Of a DNA stretch of 64,000 bases, positions 4,345-22,917 are shown one piece after another. Location of the stretch: positions 1-64,000 of IMG/VR virus record IMGVR_UViG_3300007644_000002, one strand, 5' to 3'. Under the pieces are notes generated by a model. The model was not told where the DNA came from. It searched no databases and saw only the letters and a program-made list of their open reading frames with translations. Source of the DNA: a virus. The translations under genes and the position numbers were made by a program. Position 1 is the first letter of the stretch. Each line of letters opens with the position of its first letter.

Positions 4345-4580
4345 ATGAACAACTCCTCGTACAAATCAAAGACCTCATTAGTTTCAGAACGAGCTTCATC
4401 TAGATTTCGTTTATGATAGATGTTGGCAATCTTACGAAAGTGTTTCTTATCAATCTCGTACTTTTCAGCAGTAACGTCGACGATATCTTTCATCAACTCA
4501 CGTTCCGCTTCGATACGTAACATGCTATCGGACATTTCTCTTACCGCCGCAGCGACTTTATCTTTATCTGCTAAAATCAT
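4341..4580 (-). CDS. T4 DsbA-like dsDNA-binding protein
   Basis: 79 aa helical protein with SDSMLRIEAERE and FRKIANIYHK, resembling T4 DsbA/GapR. Confidence 0.65.
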   Translation of the reverse strand: MILADKDKVAAAVREMSDSMLRIEAERELMKDIVDVTAEKYEIDKKHFRKIANIYHKRNLDEARSETNEVFDLYEELFI

Positions 4581-4849
4581 TATAGTATAATCCCACTAGT
4601 TGCTCGTGTATATTCCTTAGAAAAGTCTTGATTTGTTTCAGTAACAAACACATACTGTTGGAATGCCACAGACCTAGTGTCTTCATCACTAGTCATACAA
4701 ATACCACGGGCAAAACCAACACCCTGATCACCATGAATTAACATACGTGGGTCTTTTAGTGTTACCACTCCATTGGAGTTCATAGATTCAAACTTACCTA
4801 CATATTCGCCACTTACCGTGACTACTGTTACCACATCATTTAATTTCAT
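4580..4849 (-). CDS. hypothetical protein, possible Sm-like fold
   Basis: VTVVTVSGEYVGKF...VTLKDPR beta pattern; C-terminal SGIIL. Confidence 0.55.
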   Translation of the reverse strand: MKLNDVVTVVTVSGEYVGKFESMNSNGVVTLKDPRMLIHGDQGVGFARGICMTSDEDTRSVAFQQYVFVTETNQDFSKEYTRATSGIIL

Positions 4850-5526
4850 TCTTCACTCTCAATTTCATCAATTAACATATCACGCATCGCTCTCGCTTGC
4901 GCATCTTCAGGGTTATTCACACTACCACCATTAACAAACTTATATGCTAGTGTAATGCGTTGACATCCTGCGTAAGCAGCGTGCCAACAGTGTAAATCTT
5001 CTTCTTCTCCAGAACCAAAATAATAGTGTCTAGCTTGCCATCCAGGCACATCTTGGATACGAACTATTTCGTCAGTCTTCTTATCATAGTACTCAAAGTA
5101 ACCATCACCAGTCTCAGACCAAGTGAATAGTATTTGATAAGCGTTCGCATCATAGTTAGTATGCCATCCGACAAAACCGCCTGGCGGGTAATAGGAGAGT
5201 AATGCGGACGTGTGTGCTCCAATCTCCGCAGCGAAGTCATACTTGACCTTCTGCATAAAGTCTCCCCACATTTCCTTATCTTCACGTACCATCTTAGAGA
5301 TAGGTTGCGCAAAGTAACGGTCGGGTGGGCCTACTAACTCAGGGTATCTAGATAGACAATCATCAAGATACTCACGAGACGTATAGTAAATACCTTTGTT
5401 GATATCTTCAACTTCGTGGTATGTCCAATACTTCTCATTATTGTAAGAAGGTTTTGATAACATCTCTTGCGAGAAACCATCGAGAACCTTTAACAACTCT
5501 TTATTCCTAATAACAACTTCGCTCAT
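4846..5526 (-). CDS. 2OG-Fe(II)/DSBH oxygenase-like protein, paralog 1
   Basis: YYPPGGFVGWHTN...HCWHAA...RITLAY; paralogs at 34402 and 62127. Confidence 0.6.
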   Translation of the reverse strand: MSEVVIRNKELLKVLDGFSQEMLSKPSYNNEKYWTYHEVEDINKGIYYTSREYLDDCLSRYPELVGPPDRYFAQPISKMVREDKEMWGDFMQKVKYDFAAEIGAHTSALLSYYPPGGFVGWHTNYDANAYQILFTWSETGDGYFEYYDKKTDEIVRIQDVPGWQARHYYFGSGEEEDLHCWHAAYAGCQRITLAYKFVNGGSVNNPEDAQARAMRDMLIDEIESEE

Positions 5527-5529
5527 AAA

Positions 5530-5718
5530 TCACTTCTTGTTTAACGTAAAACTTCCATCGATTAATTGTTTCCATTGTAACACATCGCCCACCTTCAAGT
5601 CAAGGGCTTCCATGAGTTCATCAGAGAATTCTATAGCAAGCTCTCCATCTTCCACTTCAACTATAGGGCAGGTGAATATATTTTTATCTTCCGCGTCGCT
5701 CATTTTCAAATCGTTCAT
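5530..5718 (-). CDS. AbrB/MazE-like DNA-binding domain protein
   Basis: LAIEFSDELMEALDLKVGDVLQW pattern. Confidence 0.65.
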   Translation of the reverse strand: MNDLKMSDAEDKNIFTCPIVEVEDGELAIEFSDELMEALDLKVGDVLQWKQLIDGSFTLNKK

Positions 5719-5872
5719 TGGCTGTTTTAATATCCTCGTCAGTTAACACATCATAGTTCGTTAAGTAATTTATAGTGTTGGCAATACCGCTCGCTAATCC
5801 AGACCGTCTACCTATCCTATAGGCAATAGCAATAACTGCCAACGCAATTACGGTGTGTAGTATTGGATCCAT
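5684..5872 (-). CDS. small membrane protein
   Basis: N-terminal hydrophobic helix; AAGGA before ATG. Confidence 0.6.
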   Translation of the reverse strand: MDPILHTVIALAVIAIAYRIGRRSGLASGIANTINYLTNYDVLTDEDIKTANERFENERRGR

Positions 5873-5883
5873 TATAGGATTCC

Positions 5884-7284
5884 TTATAGTTTGAAGTCAG
5901 AAAAATTAGATCTCTCCGTTAACAGTCTCTGGCCAGATGCGCTATTATCGAACGCTGGGCCATTGTCCTCTTCTTTATTTAGAGGCGAATCATTCTGGTC
6001 AACATCATACAATCGCATCTTACTTCTATCTACACCGATAACGAATCTCTGGTTCGCACCAAGGTCGTTATATCGGTTCTTTAACTGTTTCACTAATATC
6101 TGATTTGACGCTTTAAGTTCGTCATTCACTATGAGCGCAAACATAAGGTCTGCGGTCGCAGGCAATCCAAAAGACTCAGACGTATCTTCCAATCCGACAT
6201 CATCATTATTGTAACCACCACGAGTAGTTTGTGTCGCCGACACGACAGGCACGTCAAACTCGACAGCAAGTCCACGTAACTCTTCAGCAATTGACTTGAT
6301 GTAACTATAAGAGTTGATTGACCCACCCATACCCTTCATACGCGCACTTGAACAAATGTTCAGATAGTCAATGAAAATAATATCAGGTATCATATTACGT
6401 TTAAGTTTTAGCTCATTCAGTAACGCACGGAAGTGATTAGCATGAGCGGAACCAGTTGGATACTCTTTAATGATTAACTTACCATTAGTCTTAGTAGCAA
6501 TATTCTGAACCTTCTTAGTAAATGAATCTTTACTGAGATGTTCTAATTGATCAATAGGGACATTCAGTAAGTTCGCATCAATACGTTCTGCGATACGTTC
6601 TTCGGACATCTCCATAGTGATGTATAGGACGTTCTTACCCTGAGACAGAGCAGAAGCTGCCATATGGCACATGAACAGAGACTTACCAACACCAGTACCC
6701 GCAAGAGCGATGTTCAATGTCTTCTTAGGTAGACCGCCTTTAGTAATACGATTGAAATAGTCTAAATCAAATTCTAGACGTTCTTCTTCCAAGTGGTAGA
6801 AATCAAAACGTTCATCAGCGTTATCAATATAGTCGTGACCAATGTTAGTATCGAACGATACGGACAGGGCTTTAGACAGTACATCAGGAATAGCATTCTT
6901 ACCCAACTCAGCGTGTTTGCCGTCGATGATAGAGATAGACTCCATGACAGCATTAAACACCGCACGGTCTTGACACCACTTCTCAGTGCGCTCAAGTAAC
7001 CACTCTAAGTTTTCCTCAGAGTAATTGAAGATGTCCGGAAGGATATCCATAGCATGACGGTACTGCTCGTCAGTGAGACGGTCAGTACTGTCCAGTTCAA
7101 TCTTGAAAGCTTCCTTAGAGGGAAGACGATTGAACTTAGCAATGAACTTAGTAAACTCTTTGAAGAGTGCCTGATAGACACCCTCAAAGTAGTCAGGATT
7201 TATAAACGCTGCGACCTTACGTGTGTAAGGATCATTAGTCAATAGATTCCGTAGAATCGTCTGTTGTAGATTGATTTCCGTCAC
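5884..7284 (-). CDS. 41: replicative DNA helicase gp41 (DnaB-like); GTG start at 7284 likely
   Basis: LAGTGVGKS Walker A, YITMEMSEE, IFIDYLNI, SATQTTR, SESFGLPATAD, KQLKNRY. Confidence 0.95.
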   Translation of the reverse strand: MTEINLQQTILRNLLTNDPYTRKVAAFINPDYFEGVYQALFKEFTKFIAKFNRLPSKEAFKIELDSTDRLTDEQYRHAMDILPDIFNYSEENLEWLLERTEKWCQDRAVFNAVMESISIIDGKHAELGKNAIPDVLSKALSVSFDTNIGHDYIDNADERFDFYHLEEERLEFDLDYFNRITKGGLPKKTLNIALAGTGVGKSLFMCHMAASALSQGKNVLYITMEMSEERIAERIDANLLNVPIDQLEHLSKDSFTKKVQNIATKTNGKLIIKEYPTGSAHANHFRALLNELKLKRNMIPDIIFIDYLNICSSARMKGMGGSINSYSYIKSIAEELRGLAVEFDVPVVSATQTTRGGYNNDDVGLEDTSESFGLPATADLMFALIVNDELKASNQILVKQLKNRYNDLGANQRFVIGVDRSKMRLYDVDQNDSPLNKEEDNGPAFDNSASGQRLLTERSNFSDFKL

Positions 7285-9566: not shown

Positions 9567-10507
9567 TATTTAATCCCATTATAAGTTTTGTACCATTCAT
9601 AAAAACGTTCAACACCTTCGGCGATACTTACCTTGGGTTGATATCCTAGAGCCTCTAACTTAGAAGTATTAGACCAAGTCTCTAGAGTATCCGCTGGATG
9701 TTTAGGTGCGAGGTTTTTAATTGCCTCTTTACCTACATTCTTTTCAATTTGCGTGATGAATTCCATAAGTTCGACTTGTTCACCACGACCGATGTTGAAA
9801 ATCTCTCCCGATTCAATCTCAGGATGATTTAAAACGCACTCGATACCATCTAGGATATCTTCCACGAAGGTAAAGTCTCGCTTCATGTTCCCGTAATTAT
9901 ACACGGTAATCTCTTCCCCGTCAAGGATTTTATTCGTAAAATCAAATAAAGCCATATCAGGACGACCCCAAGGGCCATATACAGTGAAGAATCGTAGACC
10001 GACAGTGTTGAGTCCTGACGATTGGAACTGACATTCGTTTGCCCACTTGGTGTAACCATATGCGTTCAACTGTTTACCGGTCTCTTGACCTTCAGTCCAA
10101 GGTACCTGAGAACCCGCGTACACACAAGACGTTGACGCATAAATGATACGAGTGTCGGGAAGGTATTTCTTACACACATCAATAAGATTCTGAGTAGCAT
10201 CAATGTTGTTACGGTGATACTGTTTCTCTTTACCCATTGAGTCACGTACGCCCGCGTGAGCAGCGAGATGGATGATAACATCTGGAGAAAATTCACGCAA
10301 TAACGCTTCAGTCTTGATGTCGTCCGCGAGGTCACAGTTCCAGATAAACAGGTCAAAGTGAGTCATGCGGTCTATTTTGAGTTTCGGGTCATACAGGTGA
10401 CGATTGAAATTATCGATACCTTTTACTTCATACCCATTGTTTTGTAAACGTCCAGCGAGTTGTGAACCTATGAATCCGGCAGCGCCGGTTACAAGTATTT
10501 TCTTCAT
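9566..10507 (-). CDS. NAD-dependent nucleotide-sugar epimerase (UDP-glucuronate 4-epimerase-like)
   Basis: TGAAGFIG, HLAAHAGVR, YGYTK (YxxxK), LRFFTVYGPWGRPDMA, RDFTFVEDI. Confidence 0.9.
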   Translation of the reverse strand: MKKILVTGAAGFIGSQLAGRLQNNGYEVKGIDNFNRHLYDPKLKIDRMTHFDLFIWNCDLADDIKTEALLREFSPDVIIHLAAHAGVRDSMGKEKQYHRNNIDATQNLIDVCKKYLPDTRIIYASTSCVYAGSQVPWTEGQETGKQLNAYGYTKWANECQFQSSGLNTVGLRFFTVYGPWGRPDMALFDFTNKILDGEEITVYNYGNMKRDFTFVEDILDGIECVLNHPEIESGEIFNIGRGEQVELMEFITQIEKNVGKEAIKNLAPKHPADTLETWSNTSKLEALGYQPKVSIAEGVERFYEWYKTYNGIK

Positions 10508-10510
10508 TGT

Positions 10511-11479
10511 TTAACCATTCCTATAAATGTATTCTAATGCTCGATCAGCCTCTACCAACAGAGGCCTACTAGCATACCAGTTTCCAGTATCGTTGTCGAA
10601 CTCACGAATTAGGTCTGCGAGTTGGGTGGCGGTGAGGGGATATCCTTTCGCATATGCGTTACCCGCAATTGACAACATAATGCTGTACATCTTACCATAC
10701 CACCCAGTGTCGCTAATTTGTTGATACTCCGCACCCAGTCTTCGAGGCCAGAACGGGCAGTCACGATATGATGACCATCTGAAGTCAGTATTATTTAGAC
10801 CGTCCTTACGATGTTGAATTACGGCAGATGCCAAGTGTGGAGGTAGTCTATCTAGAAAAGAATTACCAGTCTTCTCGTGATAAGGATGTTTAGCAATCAA
10901 CTCTGACACATTCAGAGCAGCTCCTTTATTCTCAAAGAAGAACGACCACGCGTTAGGATATACCGCAGGGATATAGTACATACGCGCAAGGTCTTTAGTC
11001 TGTGGGTCACCGATCTCACCCAGTTCAGTGTTGAGTGCGTACCAGAACGCTTTGATGCGCTCGGTCTCAACCGTCTCGTCTAATCGAAAGACAATGCGAA
11101 ACTTAGGATAGTTATCTACGTCTTTCGGATGAGTCGGCTCACGTGAACTTGCTGTATTGTAGACCACATAATCATACTGACCGAAGTCTTCACGTAATGC
11201 GTCTTCTAGGGCACTAAGAGAACCGGTAGGATAATTATGATCGTCCACATCAACACAGCACCAACCACCCCAACGTAGAGTATTGCGGTTAGCGCGAGTC
11301 GTGCCGTCCTCGAAAACAGCAGGAGTAATAAGAGCAGAACTGTTAGCACCACCTTTTTGTCCCTCTTTAGTCGAGAGTGCTTTCAGTAAACCAACGAAGG
11401 CATCCCAAGTATCAAAAGATTGCTTGCGATGAGTCTTGTTGTCGAACTGATTTTTAAATATAGTTAATTCGTAATTCAT
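10511..11479 (-). CDS. putative archaeo-eukaryotic primase (PrimPol-like) protein
   Basis: hhhDhD motif (CCVDVDD), YNTASS, KFRIVFRL, DPQTKDLARMYY; helical C-terminal domain. Confidence 0.65.
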   Translation of the reverse strand: MNYELTIFKNQFDNKTHRKQSFDTWDAFVGLLKALSTKEGQKGGANSSALITPAVFEDGTTRANRNTLRWGGWCCVDVDDHNYPTGSLSALEDALREDFGQYDYVVYNTASSREPTHPKDVDNYPKFRIVFRLDETVETERIKAFWYALNTELGEIGDPQTKDLARMYYIPAVYPNAWSFFFENKGAALNVSELIAKHPYHEKTGNSFLDRLPPHLASAVIQHRKDGLNNTDFRWSSYRDCPFWPRRLGAEYQQISDTGWYGKMYSIMLSIAGNAYAKGYPLTATQLADLIREFDNDTGNWYASRPLLVEADRALEYIYRNG

Positions 11480-11485
11480 GTGACC

Positions 11486-11514
11486 ATTATACCATAATAT
11501 AGAGTGCCTGTCAA
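11486..11514 (-). promoter_or_regulatory. sigma70-type promoter (leaderless) for the primase-like gene
   Basis: TTGACA, 17 bp, TATAAT, then GGTCAC-ATG. Confidence 0.8.
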
Positions 11515-14006
11515 CCGAAGAAATCCTCTAGTGACGACGGAGGTTCCGCGTCCCAACCAACCGCATCAAGAATGGGAGTAAGTGGGTCTAGGAAACTTTT
11601 AGTAAACATCAGGTCATAATCGATATGAGTATGTAGACGCAACTCTTTTGGCATATTAAGTGGGTATGATATAACATTCTGACCCAAGTAATTAGGAACT
11701 TTCAGATAAACGAACTTAATCTTCTCGCCCGTCTGGACTTCCTGATACTTCTGTGTCAGACCGTGAGTCTTCAATGCGGCATTGTAACACAACGCACCGC
11801 GCACATGAATCGGAGTACCTTTCTTGAAGATAGTCTTGCGGTCTACCCATTTGTTCAGGGCAGATATACCACGAGGGAATGAAATATCTTCGGGTGGTAA
11901 GGTTCTGAAATGGGACTTAAAGTCTCGAATGTACTGTTGTGTGTCTGATTCGGTACCTTCTACGATAACCCGAAAGATTTCCTTGAACTTGTCACGCACG
12001 ACCGAAGGTGTCGAAGACTTGATTGCCTCGATACCCATCATCTTGAGTTTAGGTTCTGCGTATTGGACACCCTCGTTGTTATGGACGTTCAGGATGTAAC
12101 GTTTCTTAGCCATCCAGATACCACGGTCAGCGATAACTTCACGTCCCATCTCCATACGATTACTATATGCGCCAGTAATCTTCGCCATCTCTGCGTAAGA
12201 TGTTTCCAGAACTTTCTCAAAGTGTTCGGAACAAATCTTGTCTAGGAATTTAACAGGGTCTTTAGGAGCAAACTTATCAACCAAGGCACCCATACGAATA
12301 TAAACAGAGTCGGTATCAATTGCCACAACGTAGTCTTCATCTGTTTTAAGGAGGTTTTGCATTTCATTGTTAACGGCTCTCTCTGCCCATTTGATTGCGA
12401 GTTGACCCGCAATAGTAATTGATTCCGCAACTCGCTGATCAAAATATCTAAAATAGCGATTCCCAAGGGCGCCATAAAGTGAATTCATAAGAATCTTGAT
12501 GGCGGCCTGTTTATTGTTCAGAGAGGTAATCTTATACTGGAGCGCCTTAGATGGATTATGTTGATACTCTTGTTGAAGTTCCAACATCTCTTTCTTGACT
12601 ACCCGACGTTCCGAATAGTATTGTTCGATGATTGAAGGAACAACACCTTTTCGGTCGTGCGAGAATCTAACACCAGTAGGCGCAATAGAATGACAGAGTT
12701 TAGAATAATCAAAGTCGTCACTATACATAGTACCGTCTAGTATTTTATCCACAGACATATTTGGAACAATACCATCCAAAACAGTCTCGGGGGACATGTT
12801 GTACTGTACAATGATGTTAGGATACAGAGAGTTCAAATCGAAAGAGGTTACCCAGTCGTGCGAACCGACTTGAGGTTCTTTCACGTAACCACCGGCAAAT
12901 GCGGACTTAGGTTTATCTGTCTTAGGTGGAACCACAATCTGTTTCGCGTTCAGCATACGATAGATGATGCTGTCCCAGATATTAGTAGTACCTAGGGTAT
13001 CACCGTAGTTGGCACCTGCCTTATATGCCATAGTCAGGATAAGGGAGATGAGGTCGAGTTTCTCGTCCAACGCATGAACGAGTTCAACATCCTTAATGTT
13101 ATAGTCGATGAACTTCTGGTAATCTTCTTTGTAGAGATTAAACAGGGTACCGTGTTCTTCGTAGTCGATTTTACGCTCACCGAGTTCGATAGTCGCGATG
13201 TGGTCGAGACGATACGATTCTTGTTGGGTATATGTGAACTTCTTGTAAACATCCAAGTAATCGAGATGCTCAATACCCTCAAGGATATATTCTTGAACCT
13301 TCTTACCGAAGTATTCCCGATTGCGCTCGCGGATGATACCCCAAGGCGATAGTTTAGAAAGTAGTGTTTCGTCACCAAATAGATTACGCGTACGGTTGAT
13401 GATGTACGGAATATCAAATCCCATAGTGTTCCAACCAGTAATTACGTCGGGAGTATGGCGACTCCAGTGGTCAATAAACTTACGCAACAAATCCATCTCG
13501 TTATCGCATTTGATATACAAGACATCTTTACGTGTGACCACATAGTCATTCAGACCCCACACCCAGTAGACACCGTCGTTCTTGCGTAACGTAATAGAGA
13601 TGACAGGATGTTCGGCCTTACTAGGTTCAGGGAACCCCGCGTCAGACGCAACCTCAATATCGAAGTTGGTGACTTCTACCGAAGAACGGTCGAACTCGAT
13701 ATCGGTCGGGAATTTTTTAGCGATGTACTGAAACACCATGTTATTCATACCGTACACATTGACGTTAGAAACGTCACGATACAGTTTATCAAACTCGGTC
13801 GCCTCAGACATAGAGTCGAAAGTCACGGGCGCGACATTCTGACCGTCTAGGGTTTTCCAAGGTGAGGTTTTGTCACTATTGACAAATAGAGTGGGTTTAA
13901 ACGCAATCTTTTTCTTGACGCGTTCGCCATTTTTGTATCCGCGATACAGCAAGTTATTGCCGCGACGGACAACTGAGGTATAGAATTCTTTAGTATTTTT
14001 TATCAT
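11511..14006 (-). CDS. 43: family B DNA polymerase gp43
   Basis: Exo motifs FDIEV, GWNTMGFDIPY, YNIKD; pol motifs SFDLNSLYP, KILMNSLYG, DTDS; no intein seen. Confidence 0.97.
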   Translation of the reverse strand: MIKNTKEFYTSVVRRGNNLLYRGYKNGERVKKKIAFKPTLFVNSDKTSPWKTLDGQNVAPVTFDSMSEATEFDKLYRDVSNVNVYGMNNMVFQYIAKKFPTDIEFDRSSVEVTNFDIEVASDAGFPEPSKAEHPVISITLRKNDGVYWVWGLNDYVVTRKDVLYIKCDNEMDLLRKFIDHWSRHTPDVITGWNTMGFDIPYIINRTRNLFGDETLLSKLSPWGIIRERNREYFGKKVQEYILEGIEHLDYLDVYKKFTYTQQESYRLDHIATIELGERKIDYEEHGTLFNLYKEDYQKFIDYNIKDVELVHALDEKLDLISLILTMAYKAGANYGDTLGTTNIWDSIIYRMLNAKQIVVPPKTDKPKSAFAGGYVKEPQVGSHDWVTSFDLNSLYPNIIVQYNMSPETVLDGIVPNMSVDKILDGTMYSDDFDYSKLCHSIAPTGVRFSHDRKGVVPSIIEQYYSERRVVKKEMLELQQEYQHNPSKALQYKITSLNNKQAAIKILMNSLYGALGNRYFRYFDQRVAESITIAGQLAIKWAERAVNNEMQNLLKTDEDYVVAIDTDSVYIRMGALVDKFAPKDPVKFLDKICSEHFEKVLETSYAEMAKITGAYSNRMEMGREVIADRGIWMAKKRYILNVHNNEGVQYAEPKLKMMGIEAIKSSTPSVVRDKFKEIFRVIVEGTESDTQQYIRDFKSHFRTLPPEDISFPRGISALNKWVDRKTIFKKGTPIHVRGALCYNAALKTHGLTQKYQEVQTGEKIKFVYLKVPNYLGQNVISYPLNMPKELRLHTHIDYDLMFTKSFLDPLTPILDAVGWDAEPPSSLEDFFG

Positions 14007-14012
14007 GTGGCC

Positions 14013-14041
14013 ATTATAGGTTAATATGAACGCTGTGTCAA
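14013..14041 (-). promoter_or_regulatory. sigma70-type promoter (leaderless) for gp43
   Basis: TTGACA(14041-14036), 17 bp, TATAAT(14018-14013), then GGCCAC-ATG. Confidence 0.8.
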
Positions 14042-14907
14042 GAGAAAAAATCGGAAAGGGTAGCAGTATTGTTCTGTTCGTACCAGTCTCTACAAATGTC
14101 CATCACTCGCTGACGACGTTTGTAATTAATCTCACCATTATCTATTAGTGTTTCAAATAACTTGTCTATCCCGCCACCTAGTTGTAGGTTGATGTGGGGT
14201 TTGACCTTACCAAGAACTTTTTCGATCTCAAACTCTTCTCGAATTATATTCTTCTGTTTTGGTTTGTTGAGTTCTTCCCACGAGAACTTCATAAAGAACT
14301 CGCGTACGCGTGGATCTAGATACGGAGTAACATGAACCTTACCATGTTTCTCTGCTAGATTAGTGTGTTGTTTTAGTCCTGCGCAGTCACCGTCGAGGTA
14401 GGCATTACGGAACTCATTCCAGTTGACTCTCTTCTGGTTGTTTTCTTTACAGTACTTGACATAGTTGCGCTTCTTTTTAAAAGAAGAGTATCTAATCATT
14501 GCTTTCTTAGAACACCCGAAGTATGCGTCAGCACCCCATCCAGTGATACAGTATTCTTCTGTCATGTTTTCATAACAATAGAGGAAGGGAAACACTGCGG
14601 CTTCGTAGTGGGATTTCTTGCGACAACCATGTTTGACTAGTCGGTGCCAGTCTTCAACTAGGTTATCAGTAGGGACAATAATAGTGGTGAACTCCCACCC
14701 CATGATTTCTGCGACTTCCTTTGCCTTCGCGTGGTCATAAGATGGTTGTCCTTCAAGATGGAAACTATACGCGTGTACAGTCTTCCCAGCATCCTGTGCA
14801 GCGATTGCCACACTGATACTGTCAACACCACCAGAAAGAAGTACCGCAACTTTATCATGCGGCACCTTTCCTGCTATGTGGTCAGAGAGAATTTCTCTAA
14901 TCATCAA
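14038..14907 (-). CDS. asparagine-synthetase-like ATP-dependent amide ligase (synthetase domain only)
   Basis: PP-loop VLLSGGVDS, TGWGADAYFG, TPYLD, KxxIR; no N-terminal Cys glutaminase domain. Confidence 0.75.
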   Translation of the reverse strand: MMIREILSDHIAGKVPHDKVAVLLSGGVDSISVAIAAQDAGKTVHAYSFHLEGQPSYDHAKAKEVAEIMGWEFTTIIVPTDNLVEDWHRLVKHGCRKKSHYEAAVFPFLYCYENMTEEYCITGWGADAYFGCSKKAMIRYSSFKKKRNYVKYCKENNQKRVNWNEFRNAYLDGDCAGLKQHTNLAEKHGKVHVTPYLDPRVREFFMKFSWEELNKPKQKNIIREEFEIEKVLGKVKPHINLQLGGGIDKLFETLIDNGEINYKRRQRVMDICRDWYEQNNTATLSDFFS

Positions 14908-15768
14908 TTACCCCATATGGCTCTTAATATAACTACCATTTAAAATATCCTTATCCCACTCACTCATAGGTCGTCTAGCAACATCTAGAAGTGTGCCCAT
15001 TCCCATTAAATCAGTACCCTGAACTCGACAATGATTAAACTTAGTATTAGGTTTGCGATAATCGTAGTGTTTCACAACAGGGAGACCATCAAGACTCATC
15101 AATAGGTCGGTACACGTATGACCATTCCATGTCTGGTCTAGATATTGAACAGTCGCATCATTCTTGAATAACATATATTGGATGTACGGCTGGTCTGTTA
15201 TATAATAACTCGCATCTATACCAGAATCCTGAATAACCTCAACATAGTCTTTAAGGTCGAACCACCCTTCCGTACGTGCGCGTATACGCATCTTCTTCGA
15301 ATATATCACAACACCACTGTTTAACGCAATAGGTAATTGCCCATCTATACTAGGAAACTCAACACCCAACTTAGTTCTCACCAAGTTATCCCATTCTATA
15401 AGTTCAATGCGTTTGTGGTCTGGCATAGGATTATCCAGTACCCACAATTCAGGTACCATACCAACATCCATATTCTCATTGAATGCGTCGAATATATTAT
15501 ATTGTAGTTTCTCTGCGGGAAATATATCTAAGTCAGCAAACAGAACTTTATCATATTCATCGAACATAGGGTCGAATATAGGTTTTAGTGCTGAAAAGAA
15601 GTAACCCTTATCACCTACCGAATAGTTAAAATGTTTTGATAAGAAGTCAGGGTTATGTTCAAATATGTAATGAACACCTATACGTCTAGCATACTCCTCC
15701 ATCATGCGACGACCCAACAAGATATCTGCTCTTAAATCACCATCCCAGTACTGGTAAATGACATTCAT
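14908..15768 (-). CDS. GT-A fold glycosyltransferase (GT8-like), paralog A
   Basis: VLFADLDI (DxD), LNSGVVIY, TDQPYIQY, WNGH. Confidence 0.7.
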   Translation of the reverse strand: MNVIYQYWDGDLRADILLGRRMMEEYARRIGVHYIFEHNPDFLSKHFNYSVGDKGYFFSALKPIFDPMFDEYDKVLFADLDIFPAEKLQYNIFDAFNENMDVGMVPELWVLDNPMPDHKRIELIEWDNLVRTKLGVEFPSIDGQLPIALNSGVVIYSKKMRIRARTEGWFDLKDYVEVIQDSGIDASYYITDQPYIQYMLFKNDATVQYLDQTWNGHTCTDLLMSLDGLPVVKHYDYRKPNTKFNHCRVQGTDLMGMGTLLDVARRPMSEWDKDILNGSYIKSHMG

Positions 15769-16655
15769 GTGGTAGAATCTTGGTTGATCTGAAACTTGCG
15801 GTATACCCCAGTTTTATTCAGACTAACATGATTGAAGTTAGACACATTACCATGTAATTGGATATTCGCGTGACCAAATTTAAGGAATCTATCGGACGCA
15901 ACACATAGACACTGGAACATGAAAGTTGCGCGACCAGAGTTACTCATAGACCACGACTGTTCTTTGAAGAACTCAAAGAAATCGGTAGTTAAAGCAAAAC
16001 TATCTTGTCCTAGAATTTCGTCTTTCAAGCAGTCTAGAAACTGAATCGCAGTGTCTTCTTCACCAATCTCCGACATGAGAGATGCCCAAGAAGCAAAGTT
16101 TCTTCGGTAGGGGGAATATTCTGAAACGCTATCAAAGAAATCGTCTATAATATCATTACCTCTCTTCACTATACCGGAATAACTTTTCCAATATTCAATG
16201 GCATTTGACATGTTAAGGGAAGGGAGACCCTTACGTTTTACCGCATCGCCCAGAGTAGTTATCTCACTAGCCTTTGCCTTTGGATACTTGCGTTGAATCT
16301 CATCACCGGCAGTACGCTTACGAGCTTCGGTTCCTTTGGTAAAGGTGTCAGGCATAACTCCCAGTATAACCGGAACTAATACCGTTATACCTAACTTTAT
16401 CACAGCGATCAATCTATGCTGGAACTCGGTTATGTTACCATCGGTGTTGAATGTTAAAGCACCACCATCCCACAACCAACCTTCTCTCTCAATATTCCTA
16501 ACAAGATTATTGACTTGATTCTTTTTAATAAGTCTATTATCATAGTTATGGTTGTCAAGAATGTATTGGGCGACTGTTGGAGTTAATAACAGCTGGGTAA
16601 CCCCTTTTGTTTCTGATTTGGGATCAAACCCCAATTTTTCTACTCTTAAAGTCAT
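15765..16655 (-). CDS. ParB/Srx-like N-terminal domain protein
   Basis: TPTVAQYIL..N..NR, then FNTDGNITEFQHRLIAV (variant of DGQHR). Confidence 0.6.
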   Translation of the reverse strand: MTLRVEKLGFDPKSETKGVTQLLLTPTVAQYILDNHNYDNRLIKKNQVNNLVRNIEREGWLWDGGALTFNTDGNITEFQHRLIAVIKLGITVLVPVILGVMPDTFTKGTEARKRTAGDEIQRKYPKAKASEITTLGDAVKRKGLPSLNMSNAIEYWKSYSGIVKRGNDIIDDFFDSVSEYSPYRRNFASWASLMSEIGEEDTAIQFLDCLKDEILGQDSFALTTDFFEFFKEQSWSMSNSGRATFMFQCLCVASDRFLKFGHANIQLHGNVSNFNHVSLNKTGVYRKFQINQDSTT

Positions 16656-16697: not shown

Positions 16698-17411
16698 TTA
16701 CTTTATCGCAATAGCACCCACAAACAGGTGATTCATCCAGAACGGTTGAATCTTTGTTGAATCAAAACCAACTGAGGTCAGTAGACTAGTCAGGTCATTC
16801 CAAGTCATCGGTTTCAACATAGTTCGGAGAATCTTCTCTTTCTCCATAATATCTTCATAGGTAAAGTGCTGTGCCTTGTACTCATAAAACGTAGAGGTCA
16901 TCATATCTTGGATACGTGAGTTCTCCGCATAAGTCTTCTCGGCAAAGATAAACGCACCACCTTCGTTGAGTCCGTCATAGATGTTCTGTAGTACTTTCTT
17001 TCTCCATAAAGGTTGCATAAACTGTAACGTAAAGATAGATGTCACAAGAGAACAGTTGGCGAAGTTGTGGTGGATGATGTTTTTGTTTTGAAAACAGACG
17101 TGATGACCACCTTCGTTAAGTCTTGTCTGTCGCGCAGTCATATCGTCTTGAAATACCGGAGCATACTCAACACCACAGTAATGTGCGTTAGGGGCAGTAG
17201 TATGATTCTGTTCAACCATTGCTTCGATAGTCTTACCTGTACTACATCCAATGTCAACGACCTTAGTATCGTTCTCTACAAAGTAACGTGATAGGTTTAC
17301 CACGTCATCATGGAGCGTGGAGTAGTGACGAATCGAAGCATCGATGTGATTATCGAAACCTTCTTCGCGGTGACCAAACGTAAAGTCTTTATACTTCTCT
17401 CTATCTTTCAT
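16698..17411 (-). CDS. CmoA-like (carboxy-SAM synthase family) SAM-dependent enzyme
   Basis: FDNHIDASIRHY, VVDIGCSTG, SIFTLQF, IYDGLNEGGAFIFAEK align by eye with E. coli CmoA blocks. Confidence 0.8.
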   Translation of the reverse strand: MKDREKYKDFTFGHREEGFDNHIDASIRHYSTLHDDVVNLSRYFVENDTKVVDIGCSTGKTIEAMVEQNHTTAPNAHYCGVEYAPVFQDDMTARQTRLNEGGHHVCFQNKNIIHHNFANCSLVTSIFTLQFMQPLWRKKVLQNIYDGLNEGGAFIFAEKTYAENSRIQDMMTSTFYEYKAQHFTYEDIMEKEKILRTMLKPMTWNDLTSLLTSVGFDSTKIQPFWMNHLFVGAIAIK

Positions 17412-18549
17412 TATACACCTTCAATACGTTCTCATAAACGCTCTCTGCGACTGCTTTCATCATTAGTGGAGGAACCATACGACCAACACGTTCTGCCTTC
17501 TGGTTCCACTTACCCGTGAGTTTAAAATCATCAGGAAGTGACATTATACGCTTTAATTCACCTAGTGTCAACTTTCTTGGTTCACTCCAGTGAAATGCGC
17601 CGGCAGTAGTGTCACCATTACCCATTGCGGTAAGAGTAGGAGCAGGAGCTTCGAGAGATACACGTTTAAGGTTGAAGTGATGTCCTTTAGGATGATAGTC
17701 ACCACCAGTCAAGACCTTATCAGGGAACCTTGGCATTAGAGATCCCGTGTCTTTCCAGTAGGCGGTTCTCTCGAACTTCTCGGTCAGGTATTTGACTTCT
17801 TCGTCATCATACTCCAAACCAAGGAGAGCATCCTTCAGTGGAATTGTGGTGTTAGATGGTGTAGGGAATAAGTGATTCATTGTCAAGAAATGTAGACCAA
17901 CCTTGTCAGCAACATCTTGTCTCACGGCAATGAAGATTACACGTGAACGAGTTTGCGATACACCATAGTAACGAGCATCTAGTACTTCCGACACAACCTC
18001 GTAACCAATATTCTCAAACTCATTTAGAATACGTGCGTAGTATTCCTTAGCCTCACCAATAGTAAGACCTTTAACGTTCTCCGCGATAATAACCTTGGGT
18101 TGAATATCGTTAGCAACACGAAGGAACTCGAAGAACAGGTCTTCAATATTCTCGACAATTTTACCATCAGAGTATTTTTTAGTTTGTCCCCATCCATCAG
18201 AATGTTTGCCATCCGATGAATGGGAAAGTTTCCCTGCGACAGAGAATGCTGAACACGGGGGTGACCCGTCAAGAATGTCCAGTTCACCTTTCTTGAGACC
18301 GACAAGGTCTAGAAAGTCTTGACCAGACAATTCTTTGATATCGTTGGGGACGATAGGAGTGGTAGGATAGTTATCTTTGTAGGTGTTACGTGCTTCTTCG
18401 ACAAACTCATTGATCGCGAGAATATCACCACCGGCAAGACGATAACCAGTGGATGAACCGCCACCACCCGCAAAGGTGGAGACTACGTTAAATTTCTTTT
18501 GAGATGCTGCGTCGTAAACATCTTGTAATGTATAGGGGGTGTAAGTCAT
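17401..18549 (-). CDS. DNA cytosine-C5 methyltransferase homolog, putative carboxymethyltransferase
   Basis: Motif I FAGGGG, IV GSPPCSAFS, VI ENV, VIII QTRSRVIF; motif X reads VGRMVPP rather than IGNAVPP. Confidence 0.9.
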   Translation of the reverse strand: MTYTPYTLQDVYDAASQKKFNVVSTFAGGGGSSTGYRLAGGDILAINEFVEEARNTYKDNYPTTPIVPNDIKELSGQDFLDLVGLKKGELDILDGSPPCSAFSVAGKLSHSSDGKHSDGWGQTKKYSDGKIVENIEDLFFEFLRVANDIQPKVIIAENVKGLTIGEAKEYYARILNEFENIGYEVVSEVLDARYYGVSQTRSRVIFIAVRQDVADKVGLHFLTMNHLFPTPSNTTIPLKDALLGLEYDDEEVKYLTEKFERTAYWKDTGSLMPRFPDKVLTGGDYHPKGHHFNLKRVSLEAPAPTLTAMGNGDTTAGAFHWSEPRKLTLGELKRIMSLPDDFKLTGKWNQKAERVGRMVPPLMMKAVAESVYENVLKVYNER

Positions 18550-18643: not shown

Positions 18644-18672
18644 ATTATACATGACTCTGAAGGGTTTGTCAA
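18644..18672 (-). promoter_or_regulatory. sigma70-type promoter P2 of the MTase operon
   Basis: TTGACA(18672-18667), 17 bp, TATAAT(18649-18644). Confidence 0.85.
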
Positions 18673-19469
18673 TCAATTATTGCGAAAAACTTGTGTCGTG
18701 TCCAAGGTTCATTAATATGAGTCTCATTATAACCGTGATGGTCTTGAGTAACTAACAACCTCTTAGAGATGACTTGAGTGGTAGGTGTAAGAATACCTTT
18801 ACCATTCTTGTCAAGCATATTGAACGGTTCGCCAATGTCGCGACAAAAGGTCAAAGTATCACACCCATGCCATGGATGTATAGCAGTATCAGATAACCCC
18901 AGATAGTTTACTTCAGGTAGTGCCAGATGAGACGTGGTGTACGTTCTAAACAATCTCTGTAGGGTACAGTACGGGCCGCAGTTGATTGGAAAATTATTAT
19001 TAACAAGAGTATGATTCGCCCAATGAGCAAACCGTCTATCTAGGGAATACATCCCCATAAACAAACCTATGTTGGCGTAAAGCATACTGTCCGACGCCTT
19101 CGCGAGAGATTTAAACACCTCGTATCGCTCAGGAATCAGATAGGTATCATGTTCTATAACCCAAAACTTCTCACCGGACTCTGCTTGTTGTCTCATGAGT
19201 TCCCAATGAGAACACATTCCTGCCTTCTCTGTAGGAGAGTGATCGTCCTTCGCGTTACCAGAATGTAGGTCGACTCCCATGAGACTAGCCTTCCAGTTGT
19301 AACGGTCTACATGTTCTTGAAACGTATCAGACTCAGGAGTGATAGCATCAAACACTTCTATACCATCAATAAACCCATCGTCAATAGCACATTGAAAAGA
19401 CTTCCGAGAAATCTCAGCATACTCTTCTGACCTTTCATTACCCTTGATTACTATCTGTCTTACTTTCAA
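18669..19469 (-). CDS. GT25-like glycosyltransferase
   Basis: FDAITP, SPTEKAGMCSHWELM, VIEHD resemble GT25 blocks. Confidence 0.6.
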   Translation of the reverse strand: MKVRQIVIKGNERSEEYAEISRKSFQCAIDDGFIDGIEVFDAITPESDTFQEHVDRYNWKASLMGVDLHSGNAKDDHSPTEKAGMCSHWELMRQQAESGEKFWVIEHDTYLIPERYEVFKSLAKASDSMLYANIGLFMGMYSLDRRFAHWANHTLVNNNFPINCGPYCTLQRLFRTYTTSHLALPEVNYLGLSDTAIHPWHGCDTLTFCRDIGEPFNMLDKNGKGILTPTTQVISKRLLVTQDHHGYNETHINEPWTRHKFFAIID

Positions 19470-20239
19470 GAAATTCTCCTTTTGATAAACTCTTCCTGAT
19501 TACCACTTCTTAACCTACAATGAACAAACTTAGTAGTTGGGGTTCTCATATCATTCCAGATTTCAGACACATTATTAAAAAGCTTCACGCTGTCTGTCCA
19601 TATATGACCATTCCAGTCCTGACTTAACAATTGTATGTCAGCATTATTCTTATGTAACATATACTGAAGATATGGTTGAGCGGTCAGAAAATATTCATCA
19701 GGCATTCTATTTTCAAAGTCATTTAACCTAGGTGCCTTATCAATCATCCACTCTACGTATTCAGGTAGGTCAAACCAGTTCCTCGCTTTCTCTCTGATTT
19801 GTTTTGAATACAACACGACTCCGCTGTTAAATGATACATCAACAACAGCAACTTCTTCCTTCCATTCTTTTAGTTTCTTTAGTTTAGTCGGAGGAATTCT
19901 ATCATGGAAGGTTTCTTCGACGACTCCGACTTCACCCGTGAGTTCATCAAATATATTATCAGTCAGTCCCTCGATAGGAAGAACATCAACGTCCGCGTAA
20001 AGAATTTTGTCGTATTGGTCAAACCGAGGGTCTAGTAAGGGTTTCAGTGAACCGAAGTACACGTCATTATTTTGGATACGATTACCAGTAGTGTATTGGT
20101 AATGTGTTTGTAAGAAATCGGTATTATGCTCGAACATGTATTCAACACCGACAGTCTTAGCATATTCTGTCATAAGATGAACGCCCGCTTCTACTTCAGG
20201 GGTGATATCACCATCGAAATATTGATATATAAGATTCAT
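19466..20239 (-). CDS. GT-A fold glycosyltransferase (GT8-like), paralog B
   Basis: ILYADVDV, FNSGVVLY, QPYLQY, WNGH; colinear with the 14908-15768 protein. Confidence 0.7.
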   Translation of the reverse strand: MNLIYQYFDGDITPEVEAGVHLMTEYAKTVGVEYMFEHNTDFLQTHYQYTTGNRIQNNDVYFGSLKPLLDPRFDQYDKILYADVDVLPIEGLTDNIFDELTGEVGVVEETFHDRIPPTKLKKLKEWKEEVAVVDVSFNSGVVLYSKQIREKARNWFDLPEYVEWMIDKAPRLNDFENRMPDEYFLTAQPYLQYMLHKNNADIQLLSQDWNGHIWTDSVKLFNNVSEIWNDMRTPTTKFVHCRLRSGNQEEFIKRRIS

Positions 20240-20918: not shown

Positions 20919-21458
20919 TTAGTAGTATTTCGACGGACAAGGGTCACCTTCAACTCCGAAGGAGAAGGAGACTCGTGATTCTCGTGGAATTACTTGATGA
21001 TGCGTACCTCGGGGGAGGTACACGTACATACCCGGCTTAAAATCAAAAGGTTCATTGTTATTGACACCTTCTACTTTTAAACCGACAGTGCTGATCACTT
21101 GGACGAGAAAAACGTCCATAGAGTCTTTATGCCAAGGGTATGACCCACTCGCACGACCAAATCCACTAAACGCGATGTTAGTGATTTTATTGGCGTGTAG
21201 GGTGAATACGTCTTGCATCTCTTCATAAATGTTCTTAGCAAACTCCGGAGCACTTCCGCGAGAATGAAACTTATTTAATCCGATACGCATTTTGTCTGAG
21301 TTGCGATCATATAGATCGTCTGGATGCGAGTCCATCATCTTCATGAACTCATTCCAGCTGTAGGTATCTTCCATATTAAACGGAAGACTACCCACAAACG
21401 GAATTTTATTTTTTATATTGTCGTCACGGTTTTCAAAAATATCATAATAATCTGACAT
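20919..21458 (-). CDS. JmjC/cupin 2OG-Fe(II) oxygenase
   Basis: WHKDSMDVFLVQ (HxD), PGMYVYLPRGTHH, RVSFSFG. Confidence 0.8.
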   Translation of the reverse strand: MSDYYDIFENRDDNIKNKIPFVGSLPFNMEDTYSWNEFMKMMDSHPDDLYDRNSDKMRIGLNKFHSRGSAPEFAKNIYEEMQDVFTLHANKITNIAFSGFGRASGSYPWHKDSMDVFLVQVISTVGLKVEGVNNNEPFDFKPGMYVYLPRGTHHQVIPRESRVSFSFGVEGDPCPSKYY

Positions 21459-21889: not shown

Positions 21890-22274
21890 CTTTATACACC
21901 TTATTTTTTATTACGCTGATCTGTTCATCAGTCAATAATGATAGAGCCTGCCTGGCCTTTTCATTACTGTATCCATAATATTCTTTTATTAATTGAATGG
22001 CATCAGTCTGACTTGCTTTATTCCACTTAGAAAATCTCTTTCTTTTCCTAACAATATTTATAAGAAAGTCATTCTGAAGTCGCACACTAATATGATGTAA
22101 TCTGTTCATTTCGTTGGCAAGAATTACGGTATCTGAGAAGTAGGATAGAGACCTATTAATCAGATAACTGTTATAATATGTATCATTATCCGCGTCTCCG
22201 ACCAACAAATTCTTCTTGGTGTCATTAATGCTTTTTACGAAGTCAAAGGGACTTAATTTTTTAGATTCGGTCAT
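21867..22274 (-). CDS. 62: clamp loader small subunit gp62
   Basis: SPFDFVKSIN, INRSLS, RKRFSKW, EYYGYSNEKA. Confidence 0.9.
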   Translation of the reverse strand: MTESKKLSPFDFVKSINDTKKNLLVGDADNDTYYNSYLINRSLSYFSDTVILANEMNRLHHISVRLQNDFLINIVRKRKRFSKWNKASQTDAIQLIKEYYGYSNEKARQALSLLTDEQISVIKNKVYKGGREKSR

Positions 22275-22917
22275 CTATCTTACACCATCCTCTTCTAAAG
22301 TCTTTTTCATATAACGTATTAATTCTAGCAATCTGGTCTGCAGTCATGATACCATCGTATACTTTCATAGTACTAGCGTTGTCATGAATGTTTAGTCTAT
22401 CCGCAGACAACCCCAGAGCAGAGGACTCATTTATCAGCACTAGTAATCTATTTAGTTCACTGATATCTACGACAATATCGTAGTCTTCCGGAACGCCCAT
22501 GTACCATGACTGAGTATAGAAGTGATTATTTTTAACAGAACCATCTTCCATAGATATAATAACTTTTTCAATGTCACTATCCAATGAAGGAAGTTCATTA
22601 CCACGGCCGCTGCGAATGTGGCGGGCCTGGTTCGCTACGATGTACTCACACGCAGATTTGAATCTATCAATTGGATCTCTTCGAACCGCAAGTCTAAAAC
22701 TATCCTTACGGAAGGGAATATCGAATTGGTCTCCTTCTTTGCGGACTTTATCTAGTCTACCCGCACGACCAATATACTCATCGTGACCTCTATGAATTCT
22801 ATACAATTCTTTTAGGGTAGACATACCGTTCTTGGGGCAAAGTCTCACATCAACATTATTAGGAAAATATAATACGTTATCGGCGGGAGACATTTCATAT
22901 AGTGAAGTATTTTGCAT
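22261..22917 (-). CDS. sulfotransferase family 2-like protein
   Basis: 5'-PSB-like PKNGMSTLK, RDPIDRFKSA, NHFYTQ, LYEKDF. Confidence 0.7.
   Translation of the reverse strand: MQNTSLYEMSPADNVLYFPNNVDVRLCPKNGMSTLKELYRIHRGHDEYIGRAGRLDKVRKEGDQFDIPFRKDSFRLAVRRDPIDRFKSACEYIVANQARHIRSGRGNELPSLDSDIEKVIISMEDGSVKNNHFYTQSWYMGVPEDYDIVVDISELNRLLVLINESSALGLSADRLNIHDNASTMKVYDGIMTADQIARINTLYEKDFRRGWCKIDDRI

Follow-up and report, generated by a model that had tools for sequence, protein, structure and literature searches.

The closest described relative of the locus studied here is found in Synechococcus phage S-B43, whose enzyme SpCmoX was reported by Yang et al. (Nat Commun 2025, December 2025; PMC12783734) to be a DNA cytosine C5-carboxymethyltransferase that accepts carboxy-SAM (Cx-SAM) but not SAM, the Cx-SAM being supplied by a phage CmoA. 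SpCmoX acts on double-stranded DNA, requires a GC motif, and forms 5cxmdC both in vitro and in E. coli, in the latter only when cmoA is present (PMC12783734). In the 1.9 Å crystal structure 8YF3, Arg350 of SpCmoX replaces Asn304 of HhaI and directly contacts the carboxymethyl group of Cx-SAM, and the R350N variant accepted neither SAM nor Cx-SAM (PMC12783734). The neighbouring gene product CmoY, a homolog of asparagine synthetase, joins glycine to 5cxmC, and the genomic DNA of S-B43, a phage without CmoB, carries the glycine amide (PMC12783734). By mining IMG/VR v4, UniProtKB and MGnify with filters of their own, the authors collected 5,615 candidates with both SPPC and the Arg, as well as 4,257 CmoA, 2,251 ligase and 1,660 ParBc sequences on CmoX contigs (PMC12783734).

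The same authors liken the Arg of SpCmoX to the engineered N374K change in M.MpeI (PMC12783734), a variant that, according to PMC13288465, uses carboxy-SAM to make 5cxmC, a base described there as recently discovered in phage genomes. The classical user of the CmoA product carboxy-SAM is CmoB, which has tRNA (U34) as its substrate, and an Arg in the CmoB of Vibrio vulnificus has been proposed to recognise the carboxymethyl group of the cofactor (PMC12783734). The concept that ties a motif-X Arg to DNA carboxymethylation from Cx-SAM is thus already in print, and the protein described below is an uncharacterised new member of this family, which may already be among the 5,615 published candidates because IMG/VR v4 was mined for them.

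Identification of a CmoX homolog and its motif X

The window analysed here consists of 64,000 nucleotides, positions 1 to 64,000 of the IMG/VR virus record IMGVR_UViG_3300007644_000002, which has 82,714 bases and is estimated to be 46% complete, the phage being known only as this fragment. On the minus strand, at positions 17,401 to 18,549, the window encodes a protein of 382 amino acids with a C5-cytosine methyltransferase fold, which we refer to as the cmoX homolog and predict to be a DNA cytosine C5-carboxymethyltransferase. It matches PF00145 (C-5 cytosine DNA methylase) in Pfam (E = 1.5e-53, residues 20-371) and TIGR00675 in NCBIfam (E = 2.6e-43), and its best match among solved structures is chain A of 8YF3 (E = 3.4e-154, residues 4-377). 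The protein is identical to SpCmoX at 238 of the 372 aligned residues (64%), and 62% identical to the homolog in phage S-CRM01. An initial annotation of this DNA had described the catalytic PC, ENV and RxR motifs as intact, and each of them was found, all on the minus strand, namely, motif IV SPPC (Ser96-Cys99, positions 18,253 to 18,264), which corresponds to S95-C98 of SpCmoX and contains PPC at residues 97-99 with the catalytic Cys99; motif VI ENV (residues 157-159, positions 18,073 to 18,081); and motif VIII QTRSR (residues 199-203, positions 17,941 to 17,955).

The reverse complement of positions 17,467 to 17,493, GAACGTGTTGGTCGTATGGTTCCTCCA, translates to the motif X ERVGRMVPP (residues 353-361), whose second Arg is residue 357, encoded on the minus strand by CGT at positions 17,479 to 17,481, in agreement with the motif and the codon given by the initial annotation. 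We placed this residue by sequence alignment together with the published crystal structure of SpCmoX, and it corresponds to Arg350 of SpCmoX and Asn304 of M.HhaI. The similarity of the cmoX homolog to M.HhaI is distant (E = 3e-14); HMMER aligns residues 332-368 without a gap to residues 279-315 of M.HhaI, and within this block Arg357 stands opposite Asn304, so that the proposed equivalence of the Arg with the motif-X Asn of C5-methyltransferases holds. With M.HaeIII, HMMER likewise pairs Arg357 with the Asn of GNAVP. The further proposal that the Arg binds the carboxylate of Cx-SAM and marks a natural carboxymethyltransferase describes what is seen in 8YF3 for the 64%-identical SpCmoX (PMC12783734), and the parallel with M.MpeI N374K that accompanied it, a motif-X change permitting the use of Cx-SAM, is likewise found in the literature cited above.

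Comparison with SpCmoX and canonical methyltransferases

The cmoX homolog has motifs I, IV, VI, VIII and X and the covalent Cys mechanism in common with M.HhaI and M.HaeIII, but carries Arg357 where M.HhaI has Asn304. Neither element of the canonical M.HhaI-type signature, i.e., the Asn of GN[AS]V in motif X and the Gln of PCQ, is present: G-N and PCQ occur in all five canonical phage controls (Wphi, IPP52, vB_SR7, phiKp_9 and P23-45), whereas the window protein has G-R and PC-S. M.MpeI N374K is similar to the window protein in having a basic residue at the position of the motif-X Asn. However, it was derived from a SAM enzyme by a single engineered change, has Lys instead of Arg, and acts on CpG, whereas CmoX is reported to be specific for Cx-SAM and GC and belongs to a subfamily with SPPC-S in motif IV as against PCQ. 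The window protein would resemble CmoB in using carboxy-SAM, and no CmoB-type family was found among its Pfam and NCBIfam matches.

Residues F25, E47, F48, D69, S95-P96-P97-C98 and R350 of SpCmoX are all kept in the window protein, as F26, E48, F49, D70, S96-C99 and R357, respectively. The two proteins thus agree in fold, in the SPPC motif, in the cofactor residues and in the Arg of motif X, and both are partnered with a CmoA and an asparagine-synthetase-like ligase. All the sequence-level criteria of the CmoX authors, namely, SPPC, the Arg and a linked CmoA, are found for the cmoX homolog. We put the probability that the window gene encodes a CmoX-type DNA cytosine C5-carboxymethyltransferase at about 0.9. 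We infer the activity, target sequence and final product of the window protein; for its 64%-identical homolog, the chemistry, the contact between Arg and carboxylate, and the GC motif are in print.

Identity to SpCmoX is 73% over residues 1-213, but only 47 of 109 residues (43%) in the variable (target recognition) region, residues 214-322, so that the target may be other than GC; across the window, the GC dinucleotide has an observed/expected ratio of 0.89, a value that favours neither case. The divergence of this region would also suit a carboxy-SAM user whose substrate is not double-stranded phage DNA but, for instance, RNA, single-stranded DNA or free nucleotides. We consider this extremely improbable, since SpCmoX acts on double-stranded DNA and the genomic DNA of S-B43 carries the derived base (PMC12783734), since the fold and motifs of the window protein are those of DNA C5-methyltransferases, and since the cmoX homolog, like its counterpart in S-CRM01, belongs to the replication module, with the clamp loader on one side and the DNA polymerase on the other.

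Under the preferred reading, a CmoX-type enzyme acting on phage DNA, the neighbouring CmoA would convert SAM and prephenate to carboxy-SAM; CmoX would flip the target cytosine out, Cys99 would attack C6, and the carboxymethyl group of carboxy-SAM would be transferred to C5, while Arg357 of motif X would hold the extra carboxylate of the cofactor. The expected product is 5-carboxymethylcytosine in the phage DNA. By analogy with S-B43, where the amine is glycine, the CmoY-like ligase would most likely adenylate the carboxylate and join an amine to it, and the likely benefit would be a phage genome shielded from host restriction. The locus would then be a further example, from an uncultured phage, of the 5-carboxymethylcytosine/carboxy-SAM pathway first described in December 2025.

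Genes surrounding cmoX

The gene order on the minus strand is hsp20, a glycosyltransferase (GT)-like gene (positions 19,466 to 20,239), a gene for a 266-aa protein (positions 18,669 to 19,469), cmoX, cmoA, a ParB-like gene, another GT-like gene, the ligase gene, and the DNA polymerase gene (positions 11,511 to 14,006). The cmoA homolog (positions 16,698 to 17,411, minus strand, 237 aa), a predicted carboxy-SAM synthase, shares 11 bp with the end of cmoX. Its best match in NCBIfam is TIGR00740 CmoA (E = 1.1e-29), at 103.8 bits, which is under the curated cut-off of 193.3; its best matches among structures are E. coli CmoA 4GEK (E = 1.6e-17) and H. influenzae YecO, and it is identical to the assayed SpCmoA at 120 of 229 residues (52%). 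The ParB-like protein (positions 15,765 to 16,655, minus strand, 296 aa) matches phrog_5931 (E = 3.1e-19) and has no match in Pfam or NCBIfam; homologs of it occur in 7 of the 80 close cmoX loci described in the next section. The GT-A/GT8-like glycosyltransferase-like gene that follows (positions 14,908 to 15,768, minus strand, 286 aa) shares 4 bp with the ParB-like gene and directly borders the ligase gene.

The ligase gene itself (positions 14,038 to 14,907, minus strand, 289 aa) is a cmoY homolog, predicted to encode a stand-alone asparagine-synthetase-like, ATP-dependent amide ligase. Its product matches PF00733 (E = 6e-17, residues 19-146), contains the asparagine synthase domain only, without a glutaminase domain, and is identical to SpCmoY, the 5cxmC-glycine ligase, at 130 of 268 residues (48.5%). 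The order cmoX-cmoA-ParB-like-GT-cmoY in the window differs from the order cmoA-cmoY-cmoX in S-B43, and neither the ParB-like gene nor the GT-like gene embedded here gave a tblastn match in a 15-kb stretch of S-B43. In S-CRM01 the order is cmoA-cmoX, in a replication module as in the window.

Linkage between the motif-X Arg and CmoA

Relatives of the window protein are abundant among IMG/VR viral contigs: 391 of 398 stretches encode a confirmed one, and we examined the best 80 of these (75-100% identical to the window protein). The motif-X residue was read from an alignment covering all 80 loci, and full-length CmoA-like open reading frames (ORFs) were found with a profile built from first-round matches. 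The Arg is present in all of the best 80 of the 391 relatives, as is the sequence GSPPCSAFSV, and a full-length CmoA-like ORF accompanies 74 of the 80. With tblastn, a CmoA match was found in 75 of the 80 close loci, and it starts at or just past the end of cmoX. Among the six loci that have no full-length CmoA-like ORF, one (L046) contains only part of CmoA because the contig ends there; four of the six have fewer than 500 bases left, with just 168, 472 and 6 bases remaining after cmoX in L051, L059 and L066, respectively. The other two, L082 and L083, carry the Arg and have no CmoA-like gene within the 4.1 and 7.6 kb downstream, respectively; in L083, RecA-like and DnaB-like genes come next.

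A second Arg-bearing clade gave a similar picture. The enzyme of the Streptomyces phage TurkishDelight is 37% identical to the window protein, and in 80 loci with relatives of it (49-94% identical to the TurkishDelight enzyme) both the Arg and a CmoA-like gene are present without exception, accompanied by a ligase homolog in 36 and a ParB homolog in 71. For the two clades together, all 160 relatives have the Arg and 154 have a CmoA-like gene, these counts being drawn from contigs that vary in length and from relatives that are close kin within each set. In addition, a 14-sequence alignment that extends down to 40% identity shows no variation at E353, R354, R357, V359, P360 and P361. As the Arg is kept in 80 of 80 and again in 80 of 80 relatives, and is invariant in this alignment, its presence in motif X is not due to chance, and it provides a practical marker, readable from raw sequence, for CmoX-type enzymes.

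The nearest clade without the Arg is represented by the enzyme of the Methylophilales phage Melnitz, which is 41% identical to the window protein. In all 80 Melnitz-like loci the position of the Arg is occupied by Leu, and neither a CmoA-like gene nor a CmoY-type ligase homolog was found in any of the 80, 65 of which have at least 1 kb downstream. Instead, the next gene encodes a Tet/JBP oxygenase, a homolog of which is present in 65 of the 80 loci. The Melnitz-like methyltransferases have in common with the window protein both membership of the SPPC subfamily and a place adjoining DNA polymerase B in Kyanoviridae-type genomes. A pairing of methylase and TET in phages was reportedly noted by Burke et al. 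in 2021.

Among individual phage records, the motif-X residue is Arg in S-B43, S-CRM01, TurkishDelight, Moraxella phage Mcat8 and Erwinia phage pEa_SNUABM_23; Leu in Melnitz; Met in Flavobacterium phage FPSV-S2 and Bacteroides phage BI-TP1; and Asn in Wphi, IPP52, vB_SR7, phiKp_9 and P23-45. A search of the whole records with TIGR00740 gave no match in any of the eight non-Arg records (Leu, Met and Asn), and a match in both further Arg records, i.e., in Mcat8 (62 bits, adjoining the methyltransferase gene) and in Erwinia pEa_SNUABM_23 (138 bits, about 20 kb from the methyltransferase gene). The initial annotation had raised as a test whether GR-motif methyltransferases consistently adjoin cmoA; a CmoA-like gene accompanies 154 of the 160 Arg-bearing relatives, L082 and L083 have none in the downstream stretches given above, and in the Erwinia phage it is distant. 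The sister clades that bear Leu, Met or Asn and are devoid of CmoA add a negative control to the published work.

These data bear on the possibility that the window protein is an ordinary SAM-dependent 5-methylcytosine methyltransferase, in which the Arg is neutral or structural and CmoA serves host SAM depletion, tRNA or another purpose. It would account for the full set of C5-methyltransferase catalytic motifs in the window protein and for L082 and L083, which have no CmoA nearby despite their Arg. Moreover, the nearest non-Arg relatives are also without the canonical Asn, having Leu or Met, and the Leu clade, which adjoins a Tet/JBP oxygenase in 65 of 80 loci, is implied to make 5mC with SAM, so that departure from Asn alone does not amount to a new cofactor. 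However, the 64%-identical SpCmoX accepted no SAM (PMC12783734), the Arg is accompanied by a CmoA-like gene in nearly all the relatives counted above, and a CmoA-like gene is absent from the whole Leu clade and from all eight non-Arg phage records. The CmoX-type reading also explains the presence of cmoA here without a CmoB homolog, of which S-B43 has none either (PMC12783734). We therefore regard an ordinary methyltransferase as very unlikely.

Phylogeny of the Arg-bearing enzymes

We constructed a maximum-likelihood tree with 28 rows, from which the Erwinia enzyme was left out, being split by an intein (PF14890). The 15 Arg rows form one group (support 89/90, not starred), which sits with the Leu and Met clades inside a subfamily of support 100/99. 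In this subfamily, motif IV reads SPPC followed by Ser, Ala or Pro, whereas the canonical enzymes have PCQ. The Arg enzymes thus group together within an SPPC subfamily, the remaining members of which are paired with TET oxygenases; this placement adds to what was published on CmoX.

The Arg may have arisen once. Since all 15 Arg rows fall in one group, a single origin, retained thereafter, may underlie the link between the Arg and CmoA, instead of a series of separate events; the clades do not represent independent origins, and for this reason we dropped a Fisher-type test in which they would have been counted as such. If the origin was single, the most fitting reading of the link is that it was kept over a long time (down to about 35% identity), not that it arose repeatedly by convergence. 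The canonical Asn and Gln have been lost throughout the SPPC subfamily, including the TET-pairing members that presumably use SAM; only the Arg goes together with CmoA.

This arrangement also bears on two statements of the initial annotation. It had termed the change an Asn-to-Arg substitution, which stands as a contrast with textbook enzymes but is not a likely evolutionary step, as the nearest non-Arg relatives carry Leu or Met. It had also anticipated that an R-to-N revertant would switch cofactor preference, an expectation contradicted by the published R350N variant of SpCmoX, which is dead with both cofactors (PMC12783734). That this variant is dead is not surprising, given that Asn is not the alternative state in the SPPC subfamily. 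Its inactivity with both cofactors indicates that the Arg marks such enzymes but is no simple switch, and that it does not by itself set the cofactor preference.

CmoA-linked enzymes without the Arg

A CmoA match was found in 70 of 50,697 phage records, and four of these from other groups were inspected. In the Staphylococcus phages SPbeta-like and vB-SscS-F1, cmoA adjoins a C5-methyltransferase gene whose product has PCQ, ENV and QKR(K/R)R, but reads VGGVIN in motif X, with Gly at the position of the Arg; in vB-SscS-F1, an asparagine-synthase-like gene lies between cmoA and the methyltransferase gene. These Staphylococcus phage enzymes sit among the canonical Asn enzymes in the 28-row tree. 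The other two, MT835562 (searched over the whole record) and Alcaligenes phage Afa-NA1 (searched within ±10 kb), have a CmoA-like gene and gave no C5-methyltransferase match.

Among 28 IMG/VR relatives of the Staphylococcus phage enzyme, 17 could not be aligned at motif X; VGGVIN was read in four, each with a CmoA-like gene (4/4), and G-N in seven, none of which has one (0/7). The Arg is thus a good positive marker, present in all 160 relatives and accompanied by a CmoA-like gene in 154 of them, but it may not be the sole natural solution, for which the Staphylococcus phage enzymes provide a lead. A filter based on the Arg would miss this possible second, Arg-less lineage of CmoA-linked C5-methyltransferases.

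Glycosyltransferase-like genes

The 286-aa and 257-aa (positions 19,466 to 20,239) GT-like proteins of the window are paralogs with 41% identity. The 257-aa protein shows a weak GT8 signal (PF01501, E = 0.0026), and the Atlas neighbours of the 286-aa protein are viral clusters with PF01501 on 13-26% of their members. A copy of the 286-aa gene in the embedded position was seen only in two near-identical contigs (L004 and L005). Loci of the GT-like family numbered 3 when searched for with a single protein and 79 with an alignment-based search. Of these 79, 11 have cmoX within 10 kb and 44 have the 266-aa gene nearby; in one locus (L038), the GT-like and 266-aa genes are fused in a single frame of 557 aa, and another (L259) has a 46%-identical GT-like homolog with no cmo gene within 10 kb. 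In view of the 44 pairings with the 266-aa gene as against 11 with cmoX, and of the fusion, we did not count the GT-like genes as members of the pathway; the GT-like and 266-aa genes look like a mostly independent module within a variable island bounded by hsp20 and the DNA polymerase gene.

A role of the GT-like proteins on the carboxymethyl-derived base in the window phage is possible but unsupported. In the main text of the CmoX paper, glycosylation is mentioned only for hydroxymethyl handles (PMC12783734). In the window, a GT-A/GT8-like gene is translationally coupled between the ParB-like gene and cmoY, and two more GT-like genes lie just upstream of cmoX. On this basis the final base may be a sugar-bearing aminoacyl-carboxymethylcytosine, for example, if the ligase were to join a hydroxy-amino acid and not glycine, which we regard as unlikely; we know of no such base having been described. 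If true, the carboxymethyl handle would be taken one step beyond S-B43.

The CmoA homolog and the reach of the motif-X arginine

When the window CmoA homolog (16698-17411) is aligned to E. coli CmoA (4GEK), a Glu of its EKEKILR segment faces the Arg of the E. coli QKRS segment. SpCmoA of Synechococcus phage S-B43, which has been assayed and is highly active, shows the same pattern at this site (EKEKELR), and therefore the Glu-for-Arg replacement is no argument against carboxy-SAM synthase activity of the window protein.

The motif-X arginine (Arg357 of the window CmoX homolog) is also found in homologs without an adjacent cmoA gene. The homolog in Erwinia jumbo phage pEa_SNUABM_23 (L087, 3001-5130) is a protein of 709 aa split by an intein (PF14890), and the CmoA gene of this phage is located about 20 kb away. 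Two close relatives of the window protein, at 10001-11128 of the phage stretch L082 and 3400-4527 of L083, are 78% identical to it and keep the Arg; no CmoA-like gene was found in the available flanks of either cmoX gene. In L083 the immediate neighbours of cmoX are the DNA polymerase gene on one side and, on the other, a RecA-like gene. These two enzymes may depend on a cmoA located elsewhere in the genome, or on that of the host.

The nearest CmoX relatives lacking the Arg are represented by the enzyme of Methylophilales phage Melnitz (L085, 3001-5185), and in the 80 IMG/VR loci related to it (L089-L168) the motif-X position is Leu without exception (80 of 80). A Tet/JBP 2OG-Fe(II) oxygenase gene comes next after that of the Leu-type enzyme in 65 of these 80 loci, the two adjoining DNA polymerase B; this arrangement resembles a methylase-TET pairing, sister to that of CmoX with CmoA.

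C5-methyltransferases adjoining cmoA are also encoded by Staphylococcus phages, namely, SPbeta-like (L250, 10648-11646) and vB-SscS-F1 (L252, 11494-12501), the latter with a CmoY-like ligase between the two genes, and enzymes of the same kind occur in four further loci (L336-L339). All of them retain the PCQ, ENV and QxRxR motifs and have Gly instead of Arg at the motif-X position (VGGVIN), and the tree places them among the enzymes with the canonical Asn. This may be a second carboxy-SAM-using lineage, one without the Arg, which, if so, an Arg-based filter would overlook.

CmoA-like genes are also present in MT835562 and Alcaligenes phage Afa-NA1, with no C5-methyltransferase match in the stretches searched; the neighbours in Afa-NA1 encode a NUDIX hydrolase, a dTMP kinase and adenine methylases.

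Other genes around the cmo operon

The cmo operon contains a GT8-like gene (14908-15768), and is flanked by a paralog of it (19466-20239) and by a 266-aa gene (18669-19469), whose product has no family match. The GT-like and 266-aa genes occur together in 44 of 79 loci, where cmo genes are mostly absent, and their products are joined as one fusion protein at 4374-6047 of the locus L038. The same replication-module island carries genes for a cupin/JmjC-like protein (20919-21458; PF08007, E-value 1.1e-6) and a 218-aa protein (22261-22917) weakly matching a PHROG annotated as galactose-3-O-sulfotransferase (E-value 3.2e-5).
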